Shown here one piece after another: positions 3,019-20,132 of a stretch of DNA of 23,253 nt. Location: the IMG/VR virus record IMGVR_UViG_2778261381_000011; one strand, written 5' to 3'. The notes under the pieces are model-generated. The model was not told where the DNA came from. It saw only the letters and a program-made list of their open reading frames with translations, and did not search any database. The translations under genes and the position numbers were made by a program. The DNA is from a virus. Its lineage: Duplodnaviria > Heunggongvirae > Uroviricota > Caudoviricetes. Numbering within the stretch: the first letter of the stretch is position 1; each line of letters opens with the position of its first letter.

Positions 3019-3366
3019 TCAACTCACAGGGATGGTTAACGAAAGTGGCTGGCCGGTGTCGTTGTGCTGACCGGTTAACGTGACCGTCATTCGCCCGTCA
3101 AAACTGCGCTCAGTGGTGACGGATGACAGGGTGACGCGGGGTTCCCATTTCAGCACGGCCATGTAACAGGCGACCTTAATCTGCAACTCAAGCGCCGGGG
3201 TCTGCGGCTGGTCAATCATTGACGCCAGCAACGAGCCGTAATCACGACGCATCACCCGTGAGCCGACCGGCGTGCGCAGGATATCGCCGATACTCTGGCT
3301 GATATGCTCAAGGTCAGTGACCGTCAGGCCATCACTGCGATTCATTCCGAGATAACGCGCTGTCAT
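3019..3366 (-). CDS. W: Baseplate protein gpW (GPW/gp25 family)
   Basis: 115 aa, P2 gpW length; overlaps V stop by 4 nt. Confidence 0.9.
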   Translation of the reverse strand: MTARYLGMNRSDGLTVTDLEHISQSIGDILRTPVGSRVMRRDYGSLLASMIDQPQTPALELQIKVACYMAVLKWEPRVTLSSVTTERSFDGRMTVTLTGQHNDTGQPLSLTIPVS

Positions 3367-3998
3367 AGAGGACTCCCGGTTGTGCCGCCGCTGTCGCCGG
3401 GGTGTTTATGGGTATGCAGTACCTTACCGTTTGATGAGAGTTCACCGCCGGTGTGTTCAATGTTGCCGCGCATCGTCCCGCCCTTCTGCACTTCCAGCGT
3501 GCCGGTAATCAGCCTGTTGGTGCAGACCACCTCTGGTGTGTCCAGGGTGACGCGGGTTGATGCTTTCACCGTGACCACCGGCACCGTGGCAGTAACAGAA
3601 TCAGAAGCCGTCACGCTGGCCGTTTTAATTCCGCTTACCGTAAGTGCACTGGTTTCGGGTTCATACTCAATCACCGCCCCGTCAGGGAAACGGATATGCA
3701 GGGCATCCGCCGACGCAGACGGCGCGGGATTATCGCCGGAATAAATCCCCGGCAGAACAAACGCCGTGTCGAGTTCACCGCCCACGGCCAGAATCAGCAC
3801 CTGTTCCCCCACGGAAGGTGCCCACCATGTGCGCGAACGCCCGGCACGATGGGTCAGCCACTGAAGCCAGTCGGTGCACATGCCGCCGGTCTGCACACGG
3901 CAGCGACCGGCGTTAAGGTCGGTTTCGACGATAACGCCGGTGCGAATCATGTTGCGCAGTGCGCGCGCGAGTTCCTGAATATTTGCGAGAGTGTTCAT
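3363..3998 (-). CDS. V: Baseplate spike/assembly protein gpV
   Basis: Track ORF starts at a TTG (4034); the internal ATG at 3998 gives MNTLANIQELARALRNM..., the P2 gpV N-terminus, and a 211-aa product. Confidence 0.9.
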   Translation of the reverse strand: MNTLANIQELARALRNMIRTGVIVETDLNAGRCRVQTGGMCTDWLQWLTHRAGRSRTWWAPSVGEQVLILAVGGELDTAFVLPGIYSGDNPAPSASADALHIRFPDGAVIEYEPETSALTVSGIKTASVTASDSVTATVPVVTVKASTRVTLDTPEVVCTNRLITGTLEVQKGGTMRGNIEHTGGELSSNGKVLHTHKHPGDSGGTTGSPL

Positions 3999-4075
3999 AA
4001 CGGGAAGGATGCCGCCGGACGATACCAGCAGCAATCATGGAGGACTCTGTCAGCCGTGACACAACATAATAAATA

Positions 4076-4831
4076 TTAGTTGTAACACTTCTCTATAATC
4101 TTCATACACTCCTCATGAGCTAAATCATGGCTGTCAAATTCTTTATTAAAAAAGAAGAAAAACGCCTTCTTAACCTGAGGCATTTCAATAAAAATAAATT
4201 CATCAACCTTATGAAAGAAATGAAAACTCTTGTTTGATGTTTCAAAAACCATCAAAGAATTATGTTTTTTATCCTTCCATTTCGACATCAGATTGCGTCG
4301 CGATTTTCGTATAATCCTGAAGACATCCCCCGGCGTCGTATCGACATTCCCCCAAAACATTGCAACCGGGAAGTTTGCAAGGAAAGGGATATAATCACCC
4401 CCTTTATACCTGAGAAAGCGGGTCCGTAAATCCATTAATTGCAACTTAAAGCCCATGTATTGCAACCACCATATGATGCAATCATATTCATAATCTGTTA
4501 ACTCATCCCCCCTTTTTTCCGTAAGAAATTTCTTCAGGTTATACTCAAACACTCCCAGCAAATCAGAATTGCACACTCTGCATGCTGGTACAGTGGCTTT
4601 AATGTAATGAGTTGACTGATTATTCTTTTTATTAATTAAAGATTTTTCAGCATTTGACTCAAAGGCCCACTGAGGAATAATGTGCTCACGAGTAATATCG
4701 TCAGAACTCCCGCATAACACACATATATCAGCATTATGGTCGGCAATAATACAATCCATAACTTTCTTTTGAGAATGCTTTACTCTTTTTCTCAAAATGG
4801 AAAACTTTTTATCCACAAACACCCGTCTCAT
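4076..4831 (-). CDS. Hypothetical protein with HNH-nuclease-like zinc-finger motif; AT-rich cargo gene in the P2 orf30 slot
   Basis: 251-aa ORF. CVLCGSS-DDITREHIIPQ ... NKKNN ... CRVCNSD fits the CxxC...(D/E)H...N...CxxC pattern of HNH (beta-beta-alpha-Me) nucleases. Composition visibly AT-rich versus flanking S and V. ATG overlaps the S stop (ATGA); an alternative ATG at codon 25 exists. Confidence 0.6.
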   Translation of the reverse strand: MRRVFVDKKFSILRKRVKHSQKKVMDCIIADHNADICVLCGSSDDITREHIIPQWAFESNAEKSLINKKNNQSTHYIKATVPACRVCNSDLLGVFEYNLKKFLTEKRGDELTDYEYDCIIWWLQYMGFKLQLMDLRTRFLRYKGGDYIPFLANFPVAMFWGNVDTTPGDVFRIIRKSRRNLMSKWKDKKHNSLMVFETSNKSFHFFHKVDEFIFIEMPQVKKAFFFFFNKEFDSHDLAHEECMKIIEKCYN

Positions 4832-5286
4832 ATAACATCTTTCGATAGAATCACTAATAACTCCCTTTCTATCAATTGTATAGATTCCTTGTCAAAACCA
4901 AATAACTCACGAACAGGATATTCCACCACAGCACTGTTACGCCCCGGCTTATCCCTAAGCCCTAATTGATGTACCCGCGCAATTCGTTGTACTCCGCTGG
5001 CAAACGCCACCACAGCCGCACTCTCGCTACCTGTTGCTTTCATAAACCGGTTAGTGCGTAATTTCACAAACATTTCCCGCTTTATCCGGCCTTTCTTATT
5101 TCGTACTGGTTGGTTTTTTCTCGGTACATACGGCGTACCATCCGGGGCTTTTTGTAATTTAATTCGCTGCTGCTGGCGCTGGCGCAGCTTCTTCGCAATA
5201 TCTACCGCCAGTCTCCGGCGCCCTGACGGTGACAGCGACTCAATAAGTCCGGTCAGCCGGTCTTCAAAACGCTTAAACTCATTCAT
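4828..5286 (-). CDS. S: Tail completion protein gpS
   Basis: 152 aa, begins MNEFKRFEDRLTGLIESLSPSGRRRL..., P2 gpS-like; position after R. Confidence 0.9.
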   Translation of the reverse strand: MNEFKRFEDRLTGLIESLSPSGRRRLAVDIAKKLRQRQQQRIKLQKAPDGTPYVPRKNQPVRNKKGRIKREMFVKLRTNRFMKATGSESAAVVAFASGVQRIARVHQLGLRDKPGRNSAVVEYPVRELFGFDKESIQLIERELLVILSKDVI

Positions 5287-5746
5287 CCCACTTGCTCACC
5301 AGTTCGCGATTGATATACAGCTCCATCGGGCGGGTGACCGGCTCCGGCGGCGGAGGTTCCGGGATATTCTTCACATGCAGCGCACCGTCAACCTCACTGA
5401 CCAGCGTGCGCTCGGTCAGCATCAGGCTGATACTGATATCAAAGCTGCTGTCATTGTTGATGTCTGCATAAAATGTGAAGCCTTTTTTCTGGCCTTCGTC
5501 AGTGGTCATGATGTCGGGCTGATTTTCCCGCAGCCACGCCAGCACCGGCACAATGAGCAGGTCAAAATCACCGGTAAAATCGGTCACAATGACATTGAGC
5601 GTGTAACGCTTTTCGAATGACAGCGACGTCGCCAGTGTGGAGGCAATACTCCCGTTATCCACGAATATCCGCAGCATCTCGGGACTGGTTTTCAGCACCG
5701 TGACGGCATCAGTCAGCGCCCTGCGCAGGCTGTCGGGTTTGAGCAT
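5279..5746 (-). CDS. R: Tail completion protein gpR
   Basis: 155 aa, P2 gpR length and position; overlaps S start by 8 nt. Confidence 0.9.
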   Translation of the reverse strand: MLKPDSLRRALTDAVTVLKTSPEMLRIFVDNGSIASTLATSLSFEKRYTLNVIVTDFTGDFDLLIVPVLAWLRENQPDIMTTDEGQKKGFTFYADINNDSSFDISISLMLTERTLVSEVDGALHVKNIPEPPPPEPVTRPMELYINRELVSKWDE

Positions 5747-5999
5747 CGTTTTCGTCCTGACAGTGTTTAATCATTTTTACCTGGCTGGCACAGCGTGCCA
5801 GCGCGTTCTCAAGCTGCCGGATATCGGCACTTAAATCGCCGTTCGTCTCCGGGTCACTGCCCGGCATCGGGCAAAGGCTCACTTTCGGGCAGGCGTTGGC
5901 GACAATCACTGGCGTCTGCGCAGGCCGGGCGCTGGTGCAACCGGCGCACAGCATCAGGCAGGTCAGCACCGTACCAGCGGCGAAAATCTTCGTTTTCAT
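5709..5999 (-). CDS. lysC: LysC, Rz1-like outer-membrane lipoprotein (o-spanin), nested out of frame in lysB 3' end and R 5' end
   Basis: Internal ATG at 5999 preceded by GAGG; product MKTKIFAAGTVLTCLMLCAGC... has a lipoprotein signal and lipobox (LCAGC); 96 aa. Confidence 0.85.
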   Translation of the reverse strand: MKTKIFAAGTVLTCLMLCAGCTSARPAQTPVIVANACPKVSLCPMPGSDPETNGDLSADIRQLENALARCASQVKMIKHCQDENDAQTRQPAQGAD

Positions 6000-6706: not shown

Positions 6707-7204
6707 TTAAGCCGGTACGCCGCCAGCGGTACGCCAGACGGTGACCAGTTTTTCCAGTGAATGCTCACGCTGACCGTAACCGGCACCCGGCAGGGACGCC
6801 CAGATATTGCGACAGCGTGAAATGGCGCGCTCAATGCGTCCCGCCCGGATGTCATCCAGTGCACCGCGTTCGCGGATCAACTGAATGGCAAGTCTGTCCT
6901 GTGACAACGGACTGAAATCCGGCAGGGCAAGCTGTTTGCGGTAATGCGGCCAGAACAGGTAAAGCTGCTGATAACGACCGGAGGCCGTGGATTTTTCACC
7001 GCGACGGTTAAACACCTTCGCCGGTCGGCCATGTGCGAACGGGTGGTCACTGTAGTCGGTGAAGATTTCCGGCTTCCCGTCCAGTCCGGTGACTATCACG
7101 TCATAGCCCCGGTTTTTCGTCAGCGGATGATTCGCCGTCCCTTCGGACACGGCCAGCATGTCGAGAAAGGCGGCGATATTCTGATGCGTGTTAATTACCG
7201 GCAT
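6707..7204 (-). CDS. K: Endolysin gpK
   Basis: 165 aa, P2 gpK length; directly downstream of holin Y. Confidence 0.9.
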   Translation of the reverse strand: MPVINTHQNIAAFLDMLAVSEGTANHPLTKNRGYDVIVTGLDGKPEIFTDYSDHPFAHGRPAKVFNRRGEKSTASGRYQQLYLFWPHYRKQLALPDFSPLSQDRLAIQLIRERGALDDIRAGRIERAISRCRNIWASLPGAGYGQREHSLEKLVTVWRTAGGVPA

Positions 7205-7485
7205 TACGGTTTCCCCCTGCCCTTAAAGCGGCGCTGAATGGCAATCTCAATCACCTGATAACCGGCGATACCCAGCATGGAGCCAATGCCGCACACCGCT
7301 GGCAGTGACAGGTCAGGAAACTGCACCAGAACAACACCGGCAACCATCGAGACAAAACCACCGAGCAACATGCGCCCGATAAACAGACGCGGGGTGATGG
7401 GTTCACCACCGGCAAGCACCTTGCCGACAACAATCAGCACCCCAATCATGAAAAGCGACAGGACGCTTTTTTCTTCTGCTGTCAT
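7204..7485 (-). CDS. Y: Holin gpY
   Basis: 93 aa, hydrophobic TM segments and charged C-terminus (RRFKGRGKP); P2 Y length and position. Confidence 0.9.
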   Translation of the reverse strand: MTAEEKSVLSLFMIGVLIVVGKVLAGGEPITPRLFIGRMLLGGFVSMVAGVVLVQFPDLSLPAVCGIGSMLGIAGYQVIEIAIQRRFKGRGKP

Positions 7486-7488
7486 GCG

Positions 7489-7692
7489 TTACTCCCACAG
7501 ATTGACAGTTTCAGCCACGGGCGCGGTCTGAACGTCGGGCAGTTCGACGGCGGTGCCGTGTGGCAGCACCGCACCCAGTTCAGCCAGTCCCGGATTTGCG
7601 GCGAGCACGGTCTCAACCACGCCCTCAGTGCGCCCGTAATACCGGACACAAATGGCGTCGAGCGTGTCGCCCTGTAGCGCAAAGGTCTTCAT
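7489..7692 (-). CDS. X: Tail protein gpX
   Basis: Internal ATG at 7692 gives a 67-aa product MKTFALQGDTLDAICVRYYGRT... as in P2 gpX; start overlaps the L stop as TGATG. Confidence 0.9.
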   Translation of the reverse strand: MKTFALQGDTLDAICVRYYGRTEGVVETVLAANPGLAELGAVLPHGTAVELPDVQTAPVAETVNLWE

Positions 7693-8201
7693 CAGATTTG
7701 ACTCACGATGCAGCGCGGCTTGTCCTGGATACGCGCCACCGCCCAGCGCATATCCCGCCAAAGTTCATCAATGGTGCTGTCAATGCTGTCAGCCTTCTTG
7801 TCGCCTTTCGCACTGGCATCCACGCCGCGATAACGCTCATAAAGCGACGCGGTCGCCATCGCACACACAGCGCGCTCGTAGTAAAAAACTTTGATGCTTT
7901 CACCGTCGATGTCGTCCGCCGGAACGTCCGCCAGACGCGTAAAACCGGCGGCAATTTTCTGTTCGCGGTACTCGTACAGCTCCGCATTCGTCTCCGCCAT
8001 GCCTGACTTGATGGCCTCACGCAGACGGGCGGGGGCGACGGTCTGCTCAAGGCGCATACGTTCCCGGACGCGCTTCGGGTCGATATCAGGAAAAAAGAAC
8101 GTGTTTTTAATCACCGGCTCGTCGCCTGCCGGTTGCGGGATGACCACCGTACCCTCACCGGACACGGGAGCCTCCTTTCGCGGAATAATCAGCGTCATCA
8201 T
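7692..8201 (-). CDS. L: Head completion/stabilisation protein gpL
   Basis: ATG at 8201 gives MMTLIIPRKEAPVSGEG..., 169 aa as in P2 gpL; GAGG-containing RBS upstream. The track's longer N-terminus is not supported. Confidence 0.9.
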   Translation of the reverse strand: MMTLIIPRKEAPVSGEGTVVIPQPAGDEPVIKNTFFFPDIDPKRVRERMRLEQTVAPARLREAIKSGMAETNAELYEYREQKIAAGFTRLADVPADDIDGESIKVFYYERAVCAMATASLYERYRGVDASAKGDKKADSIDSTIDELWRDMRWAVARIQDKPRCIVSQI

Positions 8202-8300
8202 GACTACCTCTGAAAAGTCGGGCGGTGGACGCCGGTGCAGTGTCAGGTGATTCACTCCCACTGACCGGCGTGCCGCCCTGGCGCGGGGCGCATTCGGTTG

Positions 8301-9044
8301 TTAACTGGCTTTCTTTTTCGGGCGTCCACGTTTTGCCGGTGTCGCACTCCGGGTCTTACGCGGGGCGCTGGTGGCCGCTTTTGGCTGTGGCTCCGGCTTC
8401 GGTTTCAGTTCCCGCTCCAGTCGTTCAATCTCTTTTTTGACGCCTGCCTGACAGTCGAGCTGTGTCGCACGTTGCAGGTGCGCCAGCGCACCGGCGGCAT
8501 CACCAGCGTCACGCAGAAACAGACCGGTGATTTTGTGCAGCTTTGCGCGCACTTCATCAGGCATGTCTGCCGTGGCAGTCAGTTCAAGGGTGTCCGTCAG
8601 CAGGCGGGGTTCCACGGATTCACCGGCAGCGTGAGCGCGCATGGCCGCGAGCGCCACTTCCTCGGTGAACATGTACGGCGGGGTGCGGCGGTGTTTCCCC
8701 GGCATGGTCAGACCGTATTTCAGGGCATAACGGGCAATCTCCAGCGCACCGGCAATATCGCCGGTATCCAGACGCCACAGCATGACCGTCATCAGAATGT
8801 CATCCTGTGCACCTTTGCCCTGCTCCAGCACACCGTTCACCCACGGCAACCAGAACGGCAGCAGCTCGCGCTTTTTCGCGGCCTTAAGCTCTTTTGAATA
8901 AATCGCTTTCAGTGTGCGCTGGTCTGCGGCGAGCTTAACCAGCATCTGCTCATAGACAGTTGCATGTCGCAGCGGGGCGGCTTCCCGCTGCGCGGTCATC
9001 GCTGCCGAGACCCGCATCATGTGGCGCTGTGCGGGACTCGTCAT
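8301..9044 (-). CDS. M: Terminase endonuclease (small) subunit gpM
   Basis: 247 aa with basic C-terminal tail (PKKKAS); P2 gpM length; downstream of N. Confidence 0.9.
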   Translation of the reverse strand: MTSPAQRHMMRVSAAMTAQREAAPLRHATVYEQMLVKLAADQRTLKAIYSKELKAAKKRELLPFWLPWVNGVLEQGKGAQDDILMTVMLWRLDTGDIAGALEIARYALKYGLTMPGKHRRTPPYMFTEEVALAAMRAHAAGESVEPRLLTDTLELTATADMPDEVRAKLHKITGLFLRDAGDAAGALAHLQRATQLDCQAGVKKEIERLERELKPKPEPQPKAATSAPRKTRSATPAKRGRPKKKAS

Positions 9045-11207: not shown

Positions 11208-12980
11208 ATGACCATCACCACAGACACCACTCTTTTACACGACCCGCGTCGTCAGGCGGCGCTGCTGTACTGGCAGGGGTTTTCCGTGCCGCAAATTGCC
11301 GCCATGTTGCAGATGAAACGCCCGACGGTGCAGAGCTGGAAACAGCGCGACGGCTGGGACAGTGTTGCCCCCATCAGCCGTGTCGAAATGAGTCTGGAAG
11401 CGCGGCTGACCCAGCTCATCATCAAACCGCAGAAAACCGGCGGTGACTTCAAGGAAATTGACCTGCTCGGACGCCAGATTGAACGACTGGCACGGGTCAA
11501 CCGTTACAGTCAGACCGGCAACGAGGCAGACCTTAATCCGAACGTCGCTAACCGCAACAAAGGCGGGCGTCGCCAACCGAAAAAGAATTTTTTCAGTGAC
11601 GAGGCCATCGAAAAGCTGGAGCAGATTTTCTTTGAGCAGTCTTTCGAATATCAGTTGCACTGGTATCGCGCCGGGCTTGAGCACCGCATCCGCGATATCC
11701 TGAAATCCCGCCAGATTGGCGCGACGTTTTATTTTTCCCGCGAGGCGCTGCTGCGCGCCCTGAAAACCGGTCATAACCAGATTTTTCTGTCGGCCAGTAA
11801 AACGCAGGCGTATGTGTTCCGCGAATACATCATCGCCTTTGCCCGGCTGGTTGACGTTGACCTGACCGGTGACCCGATTGTCCTGGGCAATAACGGCGCA
11901 AAACTGATTTTTCTCGGCACCAACTCCAACACCGCGCAGAGCCATAACGGAGACCTGTACGTCGACGAGATTTTCTGGATCCCGAATTTTCAGGTACTGC
12001 GTAAGGTGGCATCAGGTATGGCCTCACAGAGTCACCTGCGCTCGACCTATTTCTCCACCCCGTCCACGCTGGCGCACGACGCCTACCCGTTCTGGTCGGG
12101 TGAACTGTTCAACCGGGGACGTGCCAGCGCCGCCGAACGTGTGGAAATCGACGTCAGTCATAACGCCCTTGCCGGTGGGCTTCTCTGTGCGGACGGCCAG
12201 TGGCGACAGATTGTCACCATTGAGGACGCCCTGAAAGGTGGCTGCACGCTGTTCGACATTGAGCAGCTCAAACGTGAAAACAGCGCCGACGATTTTAAAA
12301 ACCTGTTCATGTGTGAATTTGTTGACGACAAGGCGTCGGTGTTCCCGTTCGAGGAGCTGCAACGCTGCATGGTCGACACGCTGGAAGAATGGGAAGACTA
12401 TGCGCCGTTTGCCGCCAATCCGTTCGGCTCCCGCCCGGTATGGATTGGTTACGACCCGTCACACCGTGGCGACAGTGCCGGATGCGTGGTGCTGGCACCG
12501 CCGGTGGTGGCCGGTGGCAAATTCAGAATACTTGAGCGTCACCAGTGGAAAGGCATGGACTTTGCCACCCAGGCGGAATCCATCCGCAAACTCACCGAAA
12601 AATATAACGTTGAATACATCGGTATTGATGCCACCGGCCTCGGTGTCGGTGTTTTCCAGCTCGTGCGCTCGTTCTATCCCGCCGCTCGCGATATCCGCTA
12701 CACGCCGGAAATGAAAACCGCAATGGTGCTCAAGGCAAAAGACGTTATCCGCCGTGGCTGTCTGGAATATGACGTCAGCGCCACCGACATCACCAGCTCG
12801 TTTATGGCTATCCGCAAGACCATGACCAGCAGCGGACGCAGCGCCACCTATGAGGCCAGCCGCAGCGAGGAAGCCAGCCACGCCGACCTCGCCTGGGCGA
12901 CCATGCACGCTCTGTTAAATGAGCCACTCACCGCCGGTATCAGCACCCCGCTGACATCCACCATTCTGGAGTTTTACTGA
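11208..12980 (+). CDS. P: Terminase ATPase (large) subunit gpP
   Basis: ATG at 11208 preceded by GAGG; product MTITTDTTLLHDPRRQAALLYWQG..., 590 aa as in P2 gpP. Track ORF begins at a TTG. Confidence 0.95.
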   Translation: MTITTDTTLLHDPRRQAALLYWQGFSVPQIAAMLQMKRPTVQSWKQRDGWDSVAPISRVEMSLEARLTQLIIKPQKTGGDFKEIDLLGRQIERLARVNRYSQTGNEADLNPNVANRNKGGRRQPKKNFFSDEAIEKLEQIFFEQSFEYQLHWYRAGLEHRIRDILKSRQIGATFYFSREALLRALKTGHNQIFLSASKTQAYVFREYIIAFARLVDVDLTGDPIVLGNNGAKLIFLGTNSNTAQSHNGDLYVDEIFWIPNFQVLRKVASGMASQSHLRSTYFSTPSTLAHDAYPFWSGELFNRGRASAAERVEIDVSHNALAGGLLCADGQWRQIVTIEDALKGGCTLFDIEQLKRENSADDFKNLFMCEFVDDKASVFPFEELQRCMVDTLEEWEDYAPFAANPFGSRPVWIGYDPSHRGDSAGCVVLAPPVVAGGKFRILERHQWKGMDFATQAESIRKLTEKYNVEYIGIDATGLGVGVFQLVRSFYPAARDIRYTPEMKTAMVLKAKDVIRRGCLEYDVSATDITSSFMAIRKTMTSSGRSATYEASRSEEASHADLAWATMHALLNEPLTAGISTPLTSTILEFY

Positions 12981-14014
12981 TGAGCAAGAAAAAAGGGAAA
13001 ACACCGCAACCTGCGGCAAAAACAATGACCGCCAGCGCCCCGAAAATGGAGGCATTCACCTTTGGCGAGCCGGTGCCGGTACTCGACCGCCGTGACATTC
13101 TGGATTACGTCGAGTGCATCAGTAACGGCAGATGGTATGAGCCGCCGGTCAGCTTTACCGGTCTGGCGAAAAGCCTGCGTGCTGCCGTGCATCACAGCTC
13201 GCCGATTTACGTCAAACGCAATATTCTGGCCTCGACATTTATCCCGCATCCGTGGCTTTCCCAGCAGGATTTCAGCCGCTTTGTGCTGGATTTTCTGGTG
13301 TTCGGTAATGCGTTTCTGGAAAAGCGTTACAGCACCACCGGTAAGGTCATCAGACTGGAAACCTCACCGGCAAAATATACCCGCCGTGGTGTGGAAGAGG
13401 ATGTTTACTGGTGGGTGCCGTCCTTCAACGAGCCGACAGCCTTCACGCCCGGCTCCGTGTTTCACCTGCTGGAGCCGGATATCAATCAGGAGCTGTACGG
13501 CCTGCCGGAATATCTGAGCGCCCTTAATTCTGCCTGGCTGAATGAGTCGGCCACGCTGTTCCGCCGCAAGTATTACGAAAATGGCGCACATGCCGGATAC
13601 ATCATGTACGTCACCGATGCCGTGCAGGATCGCAACGATATCGAAATGCTTCGCGAAAACATGGTTAAGTCGAAAGGCCGCAACAACTTTAAAAATCTGT
13701 TTCTCTATGCCCCACAGGGGAAAGCCGACGGCATTAAAATTATCCCCCTCAGTGAAGTGGCGACGAAGGACGATTTTTTTAATATCAAAAAAGCCAGTGC
13801 CGCTGACCTGCTGGACGCGCACCGCATCCCCTTTCAGTTGATGGGTGGCAAGCCGGAGAACGTCGGGTCGCTGGGTGATATTGAGAAAGTGGCAAAGGTC
13901 TTTGTCCGCAATGAGCTTATCCCGTTACAGGACAGGATTCGGGAAATAAACGGCTGGCTCGGCCAGGAGGTCATCCGCTTTAAAAACTACTCACTGGACA
14001 CTGACAACGGCTGA
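12980..14014 (+). CDS. Q: Portal (capsid vertex) protein gpQ
   Basis: 344 aa, begins MSKKKGKTPQPAAKT...; start overlaps the P stop as ATGA. Confidence 0.95.
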   Translation: MSKKKGKTPQPAAKTMTASAPKMEAFTFGEPVPVLDRRDILDYVECISNGRWYEPPVSFTGLAKSLRAAVHHSSPIYVKRNILASTFIPHPWLSQQDFSRFVLDFLVFGNAFLEKRYSTTGKVIRLETSPAKYTRRGVEEDVYWWVPSFNEPTAFTPGSVFHLLEPDINQELYGLPEYLSALNSAWLNESATLFRRKYYENGAHAGYIMYVTDAVQDRNDIEMLRENMVKSKGRNNFKNLFLYAPQGKADGIKIIPLSEVATKDDFFNIKKASAADLLDAHRIPFQLMGGKPENVGSLGDIEKVAKVFVRNELIPLQDRIREINGWLGQEVIRFKNYSLDTDNG

Positions 14015-14041: not shown

Positions 14042-14182
14042 ACACCCCGCCATCACGCCCTCACACGCTCATCACCGCACAAAAAATCCCGCAGACACAC
14101 CAACGCCCAGCAGGCCAAGTAAACGCCTTCACGACGCGCTCAGACGCTGAAAAAATAAAATCAGCGCCACCGCCAGCGCGCA

Positions 14183-14201
14183 GTGCTTTCCCCGCCTCGC
14201 C
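14183..14201 (-). other. cos: P2-type cos site (19-nt cohesive end sequence)
   Basis: Minus strand reads GGCGAGGCGGGGAAAGCAC, which matches the P2 cohesive-end sequence as I recall it; it lies beyond the Q end, as in P2. Confidence 0.75.
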
Positions 14202-14220
14202 CGCCCGCTTCATGGGGCAA

Positions 14221-14248
14221 TTTGAATGCAAATGCATTAGCATTCAAA
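14221..14248. repeat. 28-bp near-perfect palindrome between cos and the cargo genes
   Basis: TTTGAATGCaAATGCATTaGCATTCAAA: 9-bp arms TTTGAATGC/GCATTCAAA around a palindromic AATGCATT core, two mismatched positions. Further GCAT/ATGC-rich palindromic motifs (TGCATGCA) lie at about 14293..14320. Confidence 0.5.
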
Positions 14249-14338
14249 AGCTATCCCCCAAGCAGCCTGTAAGAGTTTTTACCTCTACTTGTTTTGCATG
14301 CAAATTAATGCAATAGCATATACACCTACAGCATCTGA

Positions 14339-15628
14339 CTACTTTGTAAAAAGAGGCCTATATTTTTCAAACAAGGAGGTTTCGGATGTATTAACATCAG
14401 TGGCAGGCTGCATCTCAGCATGTTGCTTTTGTAAACGTTTAAATCTATCAATTGAATCTTTAATTAACCAAGACATTGACACCATTTCTAAAGGAGTGCG
14501 AAGCATCATTTGCCATGACACACCCCAAATCAATGAGCTACCTAATTCTTTAAATATCATCGAATAGTCTTCACCATCGACAAAAACAAGCTCAAACCCT
14601 TCATTCAAAGCTATTTGTTTAAAACAACCCAAATCAAGAACACAGAGAATAGTTAACTCCCCATTTATAAAGTCACACAAATCACGCGCATCATTTATAA
14701 GATTAACAAATGGAGTTAAAGGAACCCACAATTGATTATTTTTATATTCATTCAAAAATATAGGTGCAATTTCCCTCCCTCTAAGATCCAACTGTGATAA
14801 TGCTATATCCAGATCACAGCCACGATTAGATACCACATAAAATCCATCTTCTAGCCTTACCCATGAAATTCCTTTTTTCCTGCATACATTCAGATGCTCA
14901 TTAAATTCTTTTTTATATGTAACTTCTGAAAAACACAGTTCTTTCCTTAACACTAATGGCATCCCTCTAAAATCTTCAGCTTTATCTTCTGCTAAAAATT
15001 CAGCCAGTCTATTAAGGTTATTTTTTTGACGTTCAACACGATCATTTTTATTTTGACTTGATTTCACCTCCACCAGTACTGGTGCACCTTCACCAAGTAA
15101 ACAAACATCACCATGCCTCATACTCATTGTAATATCATTGAGTAACGTAGGAACACCAGCCTTGCAGGCCTTCTTCACCAATTCCCATTCTTCTTTTAAG
15201 CCATCCTTCCCTCCCATATAGCCCGCTGACTCCTTGGGACTGTAATCCACAACATTATAGAAAAAATGCTTAATATCAAACTTATCCAAATACAAAAAAG
15301 CAACACTATCACCAAACATTTTGAAGATATATATTTTAAATTTCACATCATCAATAGCCTGCTCAACACTCTTAATATTTTCCTTAATAAGTTTAGATTG
15401 TTCTTTTTTTAAACCACCTTTTCTTTTTGTTGCCTTTAGTTCCCCTAAGAAAGACTTTAATCCTTTGATCATCCTTTCACTTCTAATTATATTCCTTATT
15501 ATTTTGAACTGAAACGACAACAACAAATCTGTATTTTTTAGGTTTCCCTCTAATTTTACCAGGTCTTTTTTCAAATCAAACACTACCGAGTCATGCAATT
15601 TTCGACTCAATTCAGTCTTAAACTTCAT
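14339..15628 (-). CDS. Hypothetical protein with PD-(D/E)xK nuclease-like motif; AT-rich cargo at the P2 old/tin locus
   Basis: 429-aa ORF with ATG start and GAGGGA RBS 4 nt upstream. Helical/charged N-terminal ~100 aa, then ...EEWELVKKACKAGVPTLLNDITMSMRHGDVCLLGEGAPVLVEVKSSQ... giving E, D, ExK and Q in the order and spacing typical of PD-(D/E)xK nucleases. No TM segments. Not recognisable as Old or Tin. Confidence 0.6.
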   Translation of the reverse strand: MKFKTELSRKLHDSVVFDLKKDLVKLEGNLKNTDLLLSFQFKIIRNIIRSERMIKGLKSFLGELKATKRKGGLKKEQSKLIKENIKSVEQAIDDVKFKIYIFKMFGDSVAFLYLDKFDIKHFFYNVVDYSPKESAGYMGGKDGLKEEWELVKKACKAGVPTLLNDITMSMRHGDVCLLGEGAPVLVEVKSSQNKNDRVERQKNNLNRLAEFLAEDKAEDFRGMPLVLRKELCFSEVTYKKEFNEHLNVCRKKGISWVRLEDGFYVVSNRGCDLDIALSQLDLRGREIAPIFLNEYKNNQLWVPLTPFVNLINDARDLCDFINGELTILCVLDLGCFKQIALNEGFELVFVDGEDYSMIFKELGSSLIWGVSWQMMLRTPLEMVSMSWLIKDSIDRFKRLQKQHAEMQPATDVNTSETSLFEKYRPLFTK

Positions 15629-15675
15629 AGTTCCCTCAATAAAAGCAACTTACAGTCAAGGTAATTACTCCTGTT

Positions 15676-15737
15676 GTGGAACAGACTATTGCAGTCTCGT
15701 TCCACCACTAGTATAACAAGTATCAATACGGCATCAA
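15676..15737 (-). promoter_or_regulatory. Candidate sigma70 promoter and leader hairpin in the gap between the two cargo genes
   Basis: Minus strand reads TTGATG (15737..15732), 16-nt spacer, TATACT (15715..15710), then an imperfect hairpin GTGGAACAGACT-attgc-AGTCTcGTTCCAC (15676..15705) with no U-tract, then the RBS of the 429-aa gene. Confidence 0.3.
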
Positions 15738-15740
15738 CGA

Positions 15741-16472
15741 TTAGTTATCTAATACTGAAACGACTTCGCCCGTTCGGATGTCGACACGCGCAGCAATAGT
15801 CTGTTTAACTACTCCTCCATAAGCATTAGTGCCACGAAATGTGGTTTTCACAATGGCGTGCGGGTCTTTATTCAAAACCAAATGATATACCGTTGACACA
15901 TGTTTATAAGATGAATCATCGTTCATATTATCCTTAATTAGTTTTTCCAATGGACGATAAGAACCATCCCAACCACTAAAATTGCTCTGAAATGTATCAA
16001 GATTGATTTTATTGTTTAGTGAATTCGGGTCATTTTCATAATCATTAAAGCACCATCCAAGAACATCACCGAGTTTCAACTCATCATCTTTGGTAAATGT
16101 ATACTCACTCATGCAGGCATAAAATGCATCTGATGCGGTGACTGGCACTTTCTTAAAGTTAATGTAACTATTCACAATATCGTGTCGAGTCTTCTTTGGC
16201 TCGTTCCGATATTCCTTGAGTGTTTTTTCAGTATATTCGAATGTTTTTTGAGCCTGATGTTCTGCTACGGTTGCTGTTTCAGTTTTAGCAACTGGCTGGC
16301 TTTTTTCTGTTGGGTAGAGTATTGAACCAATTATGCTCAATGCAAAACCACCTCCGAGATAAACCGCACTTGCACGTTTACGGTTTGGCATCCGCACCAG
16401 TGATGGCTTGATTAACCCGATGAAAAAAGCAACGAAAAAAGCGAGTGATAGAAAAGCGATTACAATATCCAT
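15741..16472 (-). CDS. Hypothetical membrane protein with two N-terminal TM helices and a ~190-aa soluble C-terminal domain; AT-rich cargo
   Basis: Track ORF starts at a GTG (16496); the ATG at 16472 has an AAAGGA RBS and gives MDIVIAFLSLAFFVAFFIGLI (TM1), KPSLVRMPNRKRAS (basic loop), AVYLGGGFALSIIGSILY (TM2), then a hydrophilic domain. Confidence 0.6.
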   Translation of the reverse strand: MDIVIAFLSLAFFVAFFIGLIKPSLVRMPNRKRASAVYLGGGFALSIIGSILYPTEKSQPVAKTETATVAEHQAQKTFEYTEKTLKEYRNEPKKTRHDIVNSYINFKKVPVTASDAFYACMSEYTFTKDDELKLGDVLGWCFNDYENDPNSLNNKINLDTFQSNFSGWDGSYRPLEKLIKDNMNDDSSYKHVSTVYHLVLNKDPHAIVKTTFRGTNAYGGVVKQTIAARVDIRTGEVVSVLDN

Positions 16473-16701
16473 AGCTATCCTTTTTGCATCATCCACATAA
16501 AAAATCGATCTTATGTTAGCAACAGGAAGCTTACTTTTGAATATTTGTAAGTTGTTAGCTTTAGCTCTCCGAGCTAACTCCTTTCAACCGTCAAAAACCA
16601 GCACCAACGCAGTAAAAATATGACTATCAACTAACGCCTCGCTTCGCGAGTTGTTCAACCCCGCCAGCCCTGAAAACAAGTTTCACGACTGGCGGCGTTC
16701 T

Positions 16702-16908: not shown

Positions 16909-17363
16909 TATCCAAGCCACCCGTTTTGCTGTGCACGCTCCATCTGTTCATCTGAATAGTTCCATGCTCCATCCGTGGCAACCATTGCCCCGCCAGACAT
17001 CCCCGTCTCTGGTTCATACATAACAGCAAGGCCGAGCTGATGCATAATTTCATGATTAATTCTGAATACCAGACCACGCTCACTAAGTTCTTTCCAGTTC
17101 ACAATCTCATGTGCACCTGTATTAAGCAGCTCAATACTTAGCAAGACATAATCTTCCAGCCAGTCTGACAGGTCAGTAACATCTGTTATCCGGGCTTCAA
17201 CCTTTCGCCCCGTATACACACCCTGCACCCATTCATGCAAAATCAACGTGTCCCCGCGCTCATAATTACGGTCATTTTTCCGAAACTCTGCGCGTTTCTT
17301 TCCTTCCAGCACAAGGTCGAAATATTTTGCGTGCAGCTTTACCTCGTGAATTTTAGCCATCAT
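16908..17363 (-). CDS. orf91-position protein: ASCH/DUF3850-like N-terminal domain with a ~70-aa C-terminal extension
   Basis: Tandem ATGs at 17363/17360 overlap the A stop (ATGATGA). N-terminus MAKIHEVKLHAKYFDLVLEGKKRAEFRKNDRNYERGDTLILHEW resembles the small beta-barrel ASCH-like family. C-terminal part contains HEIMH (an HExxH pattern). Confidence 0.6.
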   Translation of the reverse strand: MMAKIHEVKLHAKYFDLVLEGKKRAEFRKNDRNYERGDTLILHEWVQGVYTGRKVEARITDVTDLSDWLEDYVLLSIELLNTGAHEIVNWKELSERGLVFRINHEIMHQLGLAVMYEPETGMSGGAMVATDGAWNYSDEQMERAQQNGWLG

Positions 17364-19645
17364 GTCCACTCCATTACTGTTGAGAATCCCGGCCACTCAT
17401 CAGCGACCGAATACGTGAATTTTTTCCCGTCATAATTTACGGTTGCCCCACGCGCCAGCGCCTCAATCTCCCATCGCTGAGGCCTGATACCGTTCTGAGC
17501 AAGGTCAACGCGGATACGGGTAATTTGCATTCTTTCCGACCGGGTCAGTCTGGCCGATGGTGCAATTTCATGTGGTTTTAACGGGCTTCCGTTTCTTTGC
17601 TGACGGTTTGGCGTTCTCAGGTCGTGTTTTAATGCGCCCCTGAGCGCCCTCACGACCTCCGGTTCATTCCATTCAATAACACCGTTATCAACCAGATTAA
17701 GCACTGCTGCGGCGTGCTCAGAAGGTGTGGGAGCCAGTAACGAAGCATCACCACCAGTGAGCTTTCCACAGTTATTGACAGGACTCCGAGGCGCGGCGAT
17801 GCCGCTTTTTAAAGTCAAAGGCTCAACGACCGGAACTTTCGGCACAATGCGCCAGTCCGTCGTTCTGGTGATATGAATATGACGCGCGCCGAGATGCGGC
17901 GCGTAAATGCCGACCACTCTCTCGACTTCTTCCTCGTACTCGTTAACGTCATCCGACGGGCTACGGGCGACCCTGACAGTCTGACGATCGCGCGGAACAT
18001 TTGCCCCACCCTGCGCGCTGATATACAACGCAAAATCACCACTGTCTGCGGCGGCGCGTGCAGCCTCGACGCGTTCGTCAAACTCATCAGCAATGCTGAC
18101 GCCACGAGGCAATTTGCGTAGTTCACGGTAAGCCCCCATTGTCGGCAGACCAACCGTTTTAAATTGCGGGATGCGCCACGTTGACGCCCATGCGGTAACA
18201 GCCGCGGCAGTATCTTTAAGCGGCCTGCCGGTATCGTTATCGAGCTGACCATCCAGTGCATAGCCGTCGATATTTTTTGAGATGTATTTAGCGATATACC
18301 CCGCAGCACCACCCCGGTTAAGGTGTTTTGCCTGAAAACGGTTTCGCGCGGCTCCTCTTTCGTCGCCATCCTCTTTGAGCGCATAGCGACGCATGATTTC
18401 GATAATCTGGTTACGCTGGCGTGGATTACAAAAAAGCATCATATGCCAGTGCGGTGTTCCGTCGTGGTGTGGCTCGACGACACGCAAACCGTAGACCTGT
18501 AAATCATTATCCTTGAATGCCGTACGCATCAGGCTCCAGATACGGCAGAGATAACGCTGCGCATCCTTTGGATTAAATGCCTCATCATTCCAGCCGTGAT
18601 TAAGCTGGACGGTTTTACTTTCGCCTTTTCCGACCTGACGTGTCGGGTGATACTTTGACGGCGTGGTCAGCGTGATAAACATCCCCACATCACCCTCTGC
18701 GGCGGCGTAACGCTCAATACCGGCAATGGTGTTCATCAGCTCCATCCGGCGAATTTCAGGATTAGAAATACTGCCCATCACCTTACTGATAAGGTCGATG
18801 CGCTCGCCGGTTTCCCTGTTTTCAAGGTCACACGATTTAAGAAATTCCAGATTTGCCTGGCGGCGTGCACGCACATCACGAATGGCATGTTTACTGGCAT
18901 AAGGAGAACGGTCTTTATTCACCTCCCCGACAGCAATCAGTAACGCCTCATGCCAGCGCATACGCTGGCCTTTAAGCTGATGAGTCCACCACTCATCGTT
19001 AAACAGACGGGCAATGGCAGAATATGCCTGCCTCGTGGTCATCTGTCCTTTACGGTATTTTTTCCAGTAGAGAGGGGAAATATTGAAAGCACGTGCAGCG
19101 CCAGCAACATGACCATAGAGGTGAGCCTGCGCCTCATCCGTAAACAGCGATTCTTTTTCGCCATGTGCATCCACCCAGGCATCGCTGAGTTCCTCATACA
19201 TCATGAAAAGCTGCGATGAGATACGGGCAGCAAACTTTTTCAGGTCCTTGTCATTCATTCCCGGCAGGCGCGCATAGTGGTCACGCTCTGCCAGAAACAG
19301 TAACGACGCGTCGGTGTTCATTTCATGGCGCTGATTCACACGCTCAATGCGCGGCCATAAACGACGCTGAAAAGTGGATGTGAGGAAATAAAACCCGTGC
19401 ACCGGGCTTTTATTGCGCCGGATGTAGTCATAGCGTGAAGTAAACAGCGAGCGCAAAAAGTAAGGCAGGCGGTTAATCGTGGATAAAACACCTTGCACCT
19501 GACGCATCTCGTCACGTGTAAGGGGTCTTTCGCGCCCGACGGCCTCGCGTGGCGCGTTCCATGCATAAGCACCGGTAAACGTCTTACCGGTGCCTGCGGC
19601 AAATGCTGACGGAGGGACAAAACGCCCGGAGGCTTTAACGGCCAT
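17360..19645 (-). CDS. A: Replication initiation endonuclease gpA (rolling-circle initiator)
   Basis: ATG at 19645 gives MAVKASGRFVPPSAFAAGTGK..., 761 aa, near-identical to P2 gpA as I recall it. The track's 14-aa N-terminal extension is probably not used. Confidence 0.95.
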   Translation of the reverse strand: MAVKASGRFVPPSAFAAGTGKTFTGAYAWNAPREAVGRERPLTRDEMRQVQGVLSTINRLPYFLRSLFTSRYDYIRRNKSPVHGFYFLTSTFQRRLWPRIERVNQRHEMNTDASLLFLAERDHYARLPGMNDKDLKKFAARISSQLFMMYEELSDAWVDAHGEKESLFTDEAQAHLYGHVAGAARAFNISPLYWKKYRKGQMTTRQAYSAIARLFNDEWWTHQLKGQRMRWHEALLIAVGEVNKDRSPYASKHAIRDVRARRQANLEFLKSCDLENRETGERIDLISKVMGSISNPEIRRMELMNTIAGIERYAAAEGDVGMFITLTTPSKYHPTRQVGKGESKTVQLNHGWNDEAFNPKDAQRYLCRIWSLMRTAFKDNDLQVYGLRVVEPHHDGTPHWHMMLFCNPRQRNQIIEIMRRYALKEDGDERGAARNRFQAKHLNRGGAAGYIAKYISKNIDGYALDGQLDNDTGRPLKDTAAAVTAWASTWRIPQFKTVGLPTMGAYRELRKLPRGVSIADEFDERVEAARAAADSGDFALYISAQGGANVPRDRQTVRVARSPSDDVNEYEEEVERVVGIYAPHLGARHIHITRTTDWRIVPKVPVVEPLTLKSGIAAPRSPVNNCGKLTGGDASLLAPTPSEHAAAVLNLVDNGVIEWNEPEVVRALRGALKHDLRTPNRQQRNGSPLKPHEIAPSARLTRSERMQITRIRVDLAQNGIRPQRWEIEALARGATVNYDGKKFTYSVADEWPGFSTVMEWT

Positions 19646-20132
19646 ATGAGCCAAAAGCCTCTGAACAACGCTTGCTGAGTTGCTCAACCTGCGCGTTTAA
19701 ATCAGCAAAAGACTTTGCGCTTCCGGTCAGAATATCGTGATGCATCAGGCCGGAAACGAGCTGGCTTAATTTCGGGTAATAACCAACCACCGCCAGCCAT
19801 TCCTGACCGGCGTTTTTACCGCTTTCCGCTCTCTTTTTCTCGTGGAGAATAAACTGAAAGCTGTCACTGGTAACGACATAACGTTCGCCAATTTCAATAC
19901 GAATACTCATGCCGTTCTCCGGTAATGTTTGTTTTTTTGCTTCAAAGACTGACTGACAGGAAACACAACGCGTGGCTGACGGGTAAGCCGCACGACGGGC
20001 AGCAGGTATTGGCGCGTCACACTCTTCGCAAACCAGCGCAGAAGCACCGCAATGTTTTACCCTTGCCGCGTTAATCTGGCGCTCCAGTAATTCAGCCTGT
20101 TGTTCCTGAATAAAATCTACGTTGTCCGGCAT
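19635..20132 (-). CDS. orf82/orf83-like region read as one 165-aa ORF: TraR/DksA-type C4 zinc-finger domain followed in frame by a second small-protein domain
   Basis: N-terminal part has CEEC...(19 aa)...CVSC (TraR/DksA-like zinc finger). An internal ATG (MSIRIEIGERYVV...) marks where a second gene would start, but no stop codon separates the two parts. Confidence 0.7.
   Translation of the reverse strand: MPDNVDFIQEQQAELLERQINAARVKHCGASALVCEECDAPIPAARRAAYPSATRCVSCQSVFEAKKQTLPENGMSIRIEIGERYVVTSDSFQFILHEKKRAESGKNAGQEWLAVVGYYPKLSQLVSGLMHHDILTGSAKSFADLNAQVEQLSKRCSEAFGSYGR

Follow-up and report, generated by a model that had tools for sequence, protein, structure and literature searches.

Introduction

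P2-like prophages occur in about 29% of complete Escherichia coli genomes, and the cargo slots of these phages have proved to yield new immune systems, with attention directed to the lysogen-expressed cargo of the old/tin and Z/fun slots. The gap between the tail completion gene S and the baseplate spike gene V is a recognised moron slot (PMC6823313), which surveys of P2 hotspots have not treated as a main hotspot (PMC9122126, 10.1101/2024.10.15.618418). The focus of these surveys is on old/tin, Z/fun and the tail-to-CI region, and the gene described here is unmentioned in them. In this study we analyse this gene, which we call hnh, on the minus strand at positions 4076 to 4816 of the IMG/VR virus record IMGVR_UViG_2778261381_000011 (Caudoviricetes), a stretch of 23,253 nucleotides (nt) that we refer to as the window. 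The same gene is present in phage R18C as ORF16 (gp15, HYP91_gp15, YP_009883387.1), which is 98% identical at the amino acid (aa) level, has the same S-V position and the same annotated length of 741 nt, and matches the PHROG phrog_10503 of unknown function. ORF16 has been placed among the rare morons without an assigned function, and PSI-BLAST found no motif in it (Svab et al. 2019, PMC6823313). The R18C paper, the only one that mentions the gene in our literature search, refers neither to an HNH signature nor to late-operon wiring or a wider family (PMC6823313).

Several described systems invite comparison with the hnh product. The HNH_5 family, represented by Gmet_0936 (PDB 4h9d), has the same CxxCG...(L/I)T.EH..P...(V)PAC..CN motif, the same two-CxxC zinc site and the same HNN-type active site, whereas the hnh product scores below the threshold of that family and adds N-terminal helices and about 145 C-terminal residues of its own. 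Phage homing endonucleases such as the T4 Mob proteins and I-HmuI are encoded between conserved genes, in the orientation of their neighbours, by AT-rich and sporadically distributed genes with a divergent flank, as hnh is. Unlike these enzymes, hnh has co-diverged with the phage backbone, has no known homing DNA-binding module and has many homologues outside phages. McrA of prophage e14, a type IV HNH restriction enzyme, is likewise a single prophage-borne HNH nuclease without a methyltransferase or immunity partner, but the hnh product differs from type IV enzymes in its N-terminal CxxCN-type core, in the lack of a recognised modified-base reader and of a PADLOC type IV match, and in its late-operon site. 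Among nucleases that serve the phage itself, T4 endonuclease VII, a zinc-binding beta-beta-alpha nuclease of the same general layout, resolves branched DNA before packaging, and HK97 gp74 assists terminase. Proteins of the gp74 type are small and encoded next to terminase or portal genes, whereas hnh encodes 246 aa and is adjacent to neither. Within P2, the nearest parallels in position are orf30, an AT-rich gene (GC content 0.34) in the same S-V gap, and fun(Z), which occupies the next inter-operon gap and has a proven role in lysogenic conversion. They resemble hnh as AT-rich, dispensable cargo between operons. However, these genes, whose expression in the lysogen is known or presumed, lie antisense behind terminators, that of the O operon in the case of orf30, whereas hnh follows S directly in sense orientation and shows no similarity to Orf30.

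The HNH superfamily is already known; what is new here is the architecture of the family, its fixed position in the late operon and its persistent AT-richness. Compared with the better-studied cargo, hnh stands apart as an uncharacterised nuclease family that one phage clade has built into its late operon and kept intact and AT-rich. If its target were known, a sizeable family of proteins now labelled 'hypothetical' would gain a function, and the competition of temperate phages among themselves, or with satellites, during lytic growth could become clearer. The gene lends itself to direct testing, since a 98% identical copy is present in R18C, a culturable phage.

Results

At the level of sequence, the zinc-finger HNH signature is complete in this protein family. 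Read in the 251-aa translation, the motif runs C37xxC40 ... E49-H50 ... N70 ... C84xxC87-N88 within the N-terminal third, as the initial annotation, made from the letters of the window, had described it (CxxC...EH...N...CxxC). In an alignment of 21 full-length homologues with 26-41% identity to the window protein, 13 columns are invariant (C32, C35, E44, H45, P48, W50, N65, C79, C82, N83, L87, W117 and K124, in the numbering of the 246-aa form used from here on), including the HNH-like residues on whose conservation the earlier assignment had been made to depend. The predicted beta-beta-alpha-metal core, encoded at 4517..4723 on the minus strand, comprises C32, C35, E44-H45, P48, W50, N65, C79, C82, N83 and the next helix. 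An AlphaFold2 model built from a 20-sequence alignment has a predicted template modelling score (pTM) of 0.80 and a predicted local distance difference test score (pLDDT) of about 90 in the HNH core blocks; it places a strand at 45-49, at E44-H45, a second strand at 79-83, at C79-C82, and a helix at 84-104, with N83 at its start. The invariant E44-H45 supplies the acidic residue and the catalytic-type histidine at strand 1, the invariant N65 and N83 (CxxCN) correspond to the central asparagine and the helix-start metal-ligand asparagine of the HNH superfamily, and the two invariant CxxC pairs (C32/C35 and C79/C82) align with the CxxC pairs of PDB 4h9d. In this arrangement H45 would be the likely general base, N65 would have a structural part, N83 would be a metal ligand, and C32, C35, C79 and C82 would hold zinc.

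Profile searches place the family in the same neighbourhood. The Pfam profile HNH_5 (PF14279) matches 19 of the 21 family members at E<0.1, with a best E of 3e-5, and one relative carries a precomputed PF14279 match. When the family profile was compared with the PDB, both halves of the motif aligned to the HNH endonuclease 4h9d in a marginal match, while the single window protein found no match in the PDB by sequence. We have filed the hnh product in the HNH (beta-beta-alpha-metal) superfamily, not as a curated member of HNH_5, and we infer from its motif that it is a DNA endonuclease with nuclease activity.

On either side of the core lie family-specific segments without a structural match, namely two N-terminal helices and about 145 C-terminal residues. 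The C-terminal part (4076..4516, minus strand) is modelled as helices with a four-stranded sheet; it has no recognisable relative and occurs only together with this HNH core. A profile of this part alone retrieved only proteins of the same 240-272-aa architecture, disclosed no domain fusion besides that architecture and matched nothing in the PDB. A Foldseek search with the AlphaFold2 model gave no match with E<0.01 in the PDB or BFVD, and no Pfam match was found outside the HNH core in the window protein or its relatives. The earlier description of the C-terminal 150 or so residues as unrecognised thus holds after Pfam, PDB and BFVD searches. NCBIfam had no match for the window protein; in PADLOC-DB 2.0 the best matches of the window protein had an E of 0.03 and ten relatives had none; and Rfam had no match over the whole window.

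The gene, for which the initial annotation had stated no strand, is read from a minus-strand frame of 251 codons that is open from an ATG at 4831 down to 4076. The chance probability of so many stop-free codons at the composition of this frame is about 2e-9. Its GC content, 0.364, is strongly different from that of both flanks (0.587 at 3076-4075 and 0.514 at 4832-5831), bearing out the claim of an AT-rich frame between GC-richer late genes; elsewhere in the window, only the region at 14.1-16.5 kb is equally AT-rich. The initial annotation also took the gene to start at an ATG overlapping the stop codon of S. This overlap exists (ATG at 4831-4829, S stop TGA at 4830-4828, together ATGA at 4828-4831), but the strict ATGA coupling drawn from it stands only in part, as the conserved start is a GTG at 4816, 15 nt downstream of the ATG and 11 nt after the S stop, and the ATG may not be used. 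This GTG is codon 6 of the 251-aa frame (MDKKF) and opens a 246-aa product that ends with the stop TAA at 4078-4076. The Prokaryotic Genome Annotation Pipeline (PGAP) gives identical coordinates for the 246-aa version in the 100% identical prophage of E. coli 09-02E, and RefSeq annotates the same version in phage R18C. All homologues outside the E. coli lineage begin at the MDKKF position with an ATG, 7-19 nt past the S stop. Within the E. coli lineage the conserved start codon is polymorphic between ATG and GTG, the window copy having GTG, and every copy has the extra upstream ATG, which is absent from all other lineages. The codons 4817..4831 would then represent a possible N-terminal extension of five residues (MRRVF). 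Either start would be compatible with coupling to S, and the ATGA overlap itself is not what is conserved.

The position of hnh was compared in 59 P2-like loci collected by an IMG/VR scan, a scan of one genome per species and exact-protein look-ups; they include loci from Escherichia, Klebsiella, Enterobacter, Yersinia and Kluyvera as well as unassigned viral and metagenome contigs. The gene order R-S-hnh-V-W, on one strand, is found in 59 of 59. The hnh start lies 7-19 nt beyond the S stop, except in two loci where the genes overlap by 11 nt, and the V start follows the hnh stop after 65-78 nt in 51 of the loci; this second gap widens to about 1-1.2 kb in six loci that have a further cargo gene and to 251 nt in one locus (L142) with a truncated hnh. 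In the window, S lies at 4828..5286 (PF05069, E 2.5e-29) and V, the first gene of the next late operon, at 3363..3998 (PF04717, PF18715 and PF18946; 97.6% identical to P2 V), both on the minus strand. The region between hnh and V (3999..4075, minus strand) presumably holds the late promoter pV. It contains a TGT-N10-ACA dyad at 4048-4063, which begins 12 nt past the hnh stop and about 57 nt ahead of the V start, a position that agrees with the annotated activator-binding site of P2 V, about 55 nt ahead of that gene; the same dyad occurs in Enterobacter and Yersinia loci. A scan of 3800-5400 predicted no sigma-70-like promoter upstream of hnh and no terminator at either junction, the number of sites being no higher than in shuffled sequence. 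Judged by its nucleotides, the S-hnh junction is too tight for a promoter or a terminator. The hallmarks of expression in the lysogen, namely an own promoter and insulation from late transcription, were not found for hnh in this sequence-level test. The small-subunit terminase gene is about 3.5 kb away, and the terminase ATPase and portal genes about 6.4-8.2 kb away, with head, lysis and tail genes between.

The conserved order and strand, the tight gaps and the lack of an own promoter or terminator point to hnh as the terminal cistron of the late O operon, expressed late. In this subclade of P2-like phages the operon would run ...lysABC-R-S-hnh, and the product would be made late in lytic growth with the tail proteins, by translational coupling or re-initiation after S, while the gene would probably be silent in the lysogen. 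In the initial annotation hnh was expected to be expressed with the late operon; the operon anatomy behind this claim is conserved throughout the 59 loci, and late expression itself remains the probable consequence of that anatomy. A parallel with P2 orf30 had been drawn as well, and it proved half right. The slot and the AT-richness are the same, but the sequences are unrelated (BLASTP E 0.47 over 36 residues) and the genes lie on opposite strands. Homology to P2 Orf30 was rejected on the sequence comparison.

The window itself is a P2-like prophage in reverse orientation, and the tested stretch is identical to the E. coli 09-02E prophage between pflB and pflA. Among 5426 complete E. coli genomes, 79 carry hnh, always on the chromosome, and a plasmid collection had no match. 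The V allele of the window is present in 1581 E. coli genomes, about 5% of which (79/1581) carry hnh. In a set of 50,697 phage records R18C alone has the gene, and P2 and L-413C are without it. Intact copies of 245-251 aa were found in 57 of the 59 loci; of the two damaged ones, that of L142 is truncated to 188 aa and that of L139 is apparently frameshifted near its start. Within the E. coli lineage the ratio of nonsynonymous to synonymous substitution rates (dN/dS) is 0.16 for hnh, 0.24 for S and 0.20 for V. These results show that hnh is a real, intact gene under purifying selection.

Between P2-like loci the identity of hnh ranges from 99% to 43%, and it correlates with the identities of V and S (Spearman 0.66 each, compared with 0.81 for S versus V). 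It follows that the gene is a long-standing resident of the S-V slot in a P2-like subclade and does not look like a recent insertion; it evolves somewhat faster than the structural genes and moves from one backbone to another within a larger block. Its GC content is 0.33-0.38 and its GC content at third codon positions (GC3) about 0.37 in every lineage, while GC3 is 0.67 for V and 0.53 for S. Despite its co-divergence with the backbone, hnh has not drifted towards the composition of the phage, and this persistence suggests selection for AT-richness. Two of the loci come under unexpected taxon labels, a 'Sporobacter termitidis' metagenome-assembled genome (L020) and 'Chryseobacterium sp. 18061' (L021); both have an enterobacterial-type R-S-hnh-V-W arrangement with a flank GC content of 0.55-0.59, and the labels probably reflect contamination or mis-binning.

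Although hnh sits between S and V, it is not a clean insertion at that junction, as had been supposed, since a larger block differs from P2 and L-413C. The block covers 4036..5210 and includes most of S, hnh and the pV promoter region. Megablast similarity to L-413C and P2 is lost near S codon 26-40 and returns 41 nt past the hnh stop, which puts the pV promoter region inside the block, and these boundaries are identical in 19 of 19 E. coli-lineage copies. Compared with P2, the genes R, V and W are 97-99% identical, whereas S is only 46% identical from residue 26 to its end. The S gene is a mosaic of three parts: codons 1-25 are as in P2; codons from about 26 to 95 are shared with prophages that have other cargo, including that of E. 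coli CFSAN061770; and the last 55 or so codons are AT-rich, the GC content of the final 100 nt being 0.29-0.37. This last part is always linked to hnh and resembles S of Klebsiella and Enterobacter phages that carry hnh. Breakpoint mapping in the 19 E. coli-lineage copies, intended to tell one recombination event from repeated ones, was uninformative because the boundaries of a non-homologous block stay fixed wherever crossovers fall.

In the wider family, the profile matches at least 239 protein clusters. Most are from Bacteroidota or from Gammaproteobacteria, marine ones among them, with identities of 28-43%, and all are named only 'hypothetical' or, automatically, 'HNH endonuclease'. Among 76 stand-alone loci outside P2-like phages no neighbouring gene is conserved. 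The immediate neighbours of stand-alone homologues are heterogeneous and include Mrr and type IV restriction enzymes, LmuA, GajB, AbiZ, PD-Lambda-3, SoFic, relaxases and an integrase, and two Bacteroidota homologues have AbiJ, Fic and RES-Xre genes only a few genes away. Taken together, these loci suggest that the family is an accessory nuclease encoded by one self-sufficient gene and carried by mobile elements.

Individual members of this wider family show further arrangements. In Erwinia sp. S59 (L013, 5001-5744) a 62% identical homologue is located in a conjugative element, directly after TraU and TraG_N genes and before an integrase and a KAP NTPase. A 38% identical homologue in another viral contig, of P2 type (L151, 5971-6735), is encoded some 4 kb away from the P2-type portal gene (phrog_68, E 1e-160), probably at an old/tin-type hotspot and not in the S-V gap; the open reading frame (ORF) next to it weakly matches a homing-endonuclease PHROG. 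In Flavobacterium aquatile (L010) a 318-aa HNH_5 protein (6866-7822) is encoded directly upstream of a 261-aa family member (8001-8786) on the same strand, the two sharing only the HNH motif region. A 595-aa metagenomic protein (P0127) joins a related N-terminal HNH region to a C-terminal OTU-like cysteine protease domain, and relatives of about 330 aa that share the HNH region only are all named 'hypothetical protein'.

Discussion

The anatomy of the hnh locus resembles that of a free-standing homing or competition element: the gene lies between two conserved essential genes, in their orientation and abutting S, and it is AT-rich, sporadic, linked to a divergent S flank and dispensable. For the target and role of the nuclease we infer, tentatively and with well below even confidence in the whole chain, a late-expressed enzyme that acts on competing DNA during lytic growth in a homing-like or marker-exclusion-like manner. 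Such an enzyme would cut DNA that competes with the phage, either co-resident or co-infecting P2-like genomes without hnh or other foreign DNA, and would act like a free-standing homing or marker-exclusion endonuclease and not like a defence gene of the lysogen. The roles suggested in the initial annotation, namely packaging, host DNA attack or competition with co-infecting phages, are all compatible with our results. A number of our own results weigh against this proposal. The window protein falls below the gathering threshold of Pfam HNH_5 (16.2 versus 27.5 bits, E 0.0099) and matches the first half of the motif only, and neither Pfam nor structure searches found DNA-binding modules of homing enzymes (NUMOD, IENR1, helix-turn-helix). 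The horizontal spread expected of homing, seen as incongruence or as near-identical copies in divergent genomes, was not observed: no near-identical hnh occurs on a divergent backbone, the largest excess being 74-77% for hnh versus 56-62%. Since hnh co-diverges with the backbone, recent sweeps of the kind that an active homing element should produce are not in evidence. An 'empty' allele with the same 3' end of S was not found either, 77 of the 79 E. coli matches being full length. Moreover, the distant homologues are stand-alone genes in variable bacterial regions and in a conjugative element, often near defence genes, and these neighbourhoods, together with the L151 locus, fit a defence role for the wider family.

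These last observations lead to the alternative that hnh encodes a defence nuclease benefiting the lysogen, which would restrict or abort other phages in the way of type IV HNH enzymes, with low-level expression in the prophage despite its position. We regard this as less likely still. It is in keeping with the position of hnh in a recognised moron slot whose alternative cargo includes a PDC-S59-like ATPase, with stand-alone homologues that have defence genes among their neighbours and no conserved partner, and with the homologue near the portal gene of another P2-type contig. A lone nuclease without an immunity partner would also need to discriminate self from non-self, and type IV enzymes have such discrimination. 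The association of stand-alone homologues with defence genes is suggestive only, however, being uncorrected for the baseline density of such genes, and searches of PADLOC, NCBIfam and DefenseFinder type gave no match. The arrangement of the locus also speaks against expression in the lysogen, because no promoter is predicted upstream of hnh, and all 59 loci have the gene packed closely behind S in the same orientation, whereas the known lysogen-expressed genes of such gaps are antisense behind terminators. The same late timing would suit an accessory enzyme for the phage's own late DNA metabolism, which might resolve branches or dimers ahead of packaging, help terminase or degrade host DNA. 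Expression alongside the morphogenesis genes, the CxxC...(D/E)H...CxxCN layout of the general zinc-binding beta-beta-alpha nuclease type, and the long retention and co-divergence with structural genes are all consistent with this explanation. We nevertheless think it unlikely, because about 95% of E. coli P2-like prophages with the V allele of the window, as well as P2 and L-413C, do without hnh, and because hnh is not adjacent to terminase or portal genes; in addition, the protein has no Pfam Endonuclease_7 match, its profile has no PDB match to proteins of the endonuclease VII or gp74 type, and the stand-alone bacterial homologues would be left unexplained.

A further reading makes satellites the target of the nuclease. 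A P4-like satellite steals the capsids and tails of a resident P2-type prophage by turning on the late operons of that prophage. A nuclease encoded by the last cistron of a late operon would appear exactly during such a hijack and could cut satellite DNA or abort the cell, making hnh a weapon of the helper phage that is produced when the satellite transactivates the late operons. If true, this role would explain why this gene, alone among the cargo, is in sense orientation without a promoter, why it is under purifying selection though dispensable for growth, and why it is AT-rich and silent in the lysogen; as it stands we consider it quite improbable. Finally, hnh might be a decaying or inert passenger, the remnant of a mobile nuclease gene that remains linked to S. 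The damaged copies in 2 of the 59 loci (L142 and L139) and the absence of the gene from most relatives would agree with decay. Yet its dN/dS of 0.16 is as low as that of the essential neighbours, the other 57 copies have kept their full length in lineages as far apart as 44% identity, and the catalytic and zinc-binding residues are all invariant, which together make an inert passenger very improbable.

Other cargo genes of the S-V gap and of the window

Other genes also occupy the S-V gap. In the prophage of E. coli CFSAN061770 (L017, 991-2235; NZ_CP023142.1) it holds a gene for a 414-aa ATP-binding protein on the opposite strand, with Pfam AAA_22 and a match to the PADLOC defence candidate PDC-S59 (E 5.8e-31). 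Antisense cargo in this gap comprises orf30, this PDC-S59-like ATPase, a 216-aa Klebsiella ORF and ORFs of 272-279 aa in two viral contigs. In six loci an extra ORF of 216-347 aa lies between hnh and V (for example L005 6926-7576, L131 6846-7664 and L132 6873-7712); none of these extra ORFs has a Pfam or PADLOC match, and that of L021 (6785-7828) is the one on the same strand as hnh.

Within the window, a second AT-rich island (14100-16500, GC content 0.33-0.39) is located between the portal gene (12980-14014, plus strand) and the replication gene A (17360-19687, minus strand), at the position of the old/tin-type cargo hotspot. It contains two minus-strand ORFs, 14339-15628 (429 aa) and 15741-16496 (251 aa), which have no Pfam or PADLOC match and are called hypothetical by PGAP. 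The prophage of E. coli 09-02E (L154, NZ_AP022650.1) is apparently complete, running from the integrase gene to ogr, and its Z/fun-type slot, just outside the window, carries a 259-aa hypothetical gene on the opposite strand.

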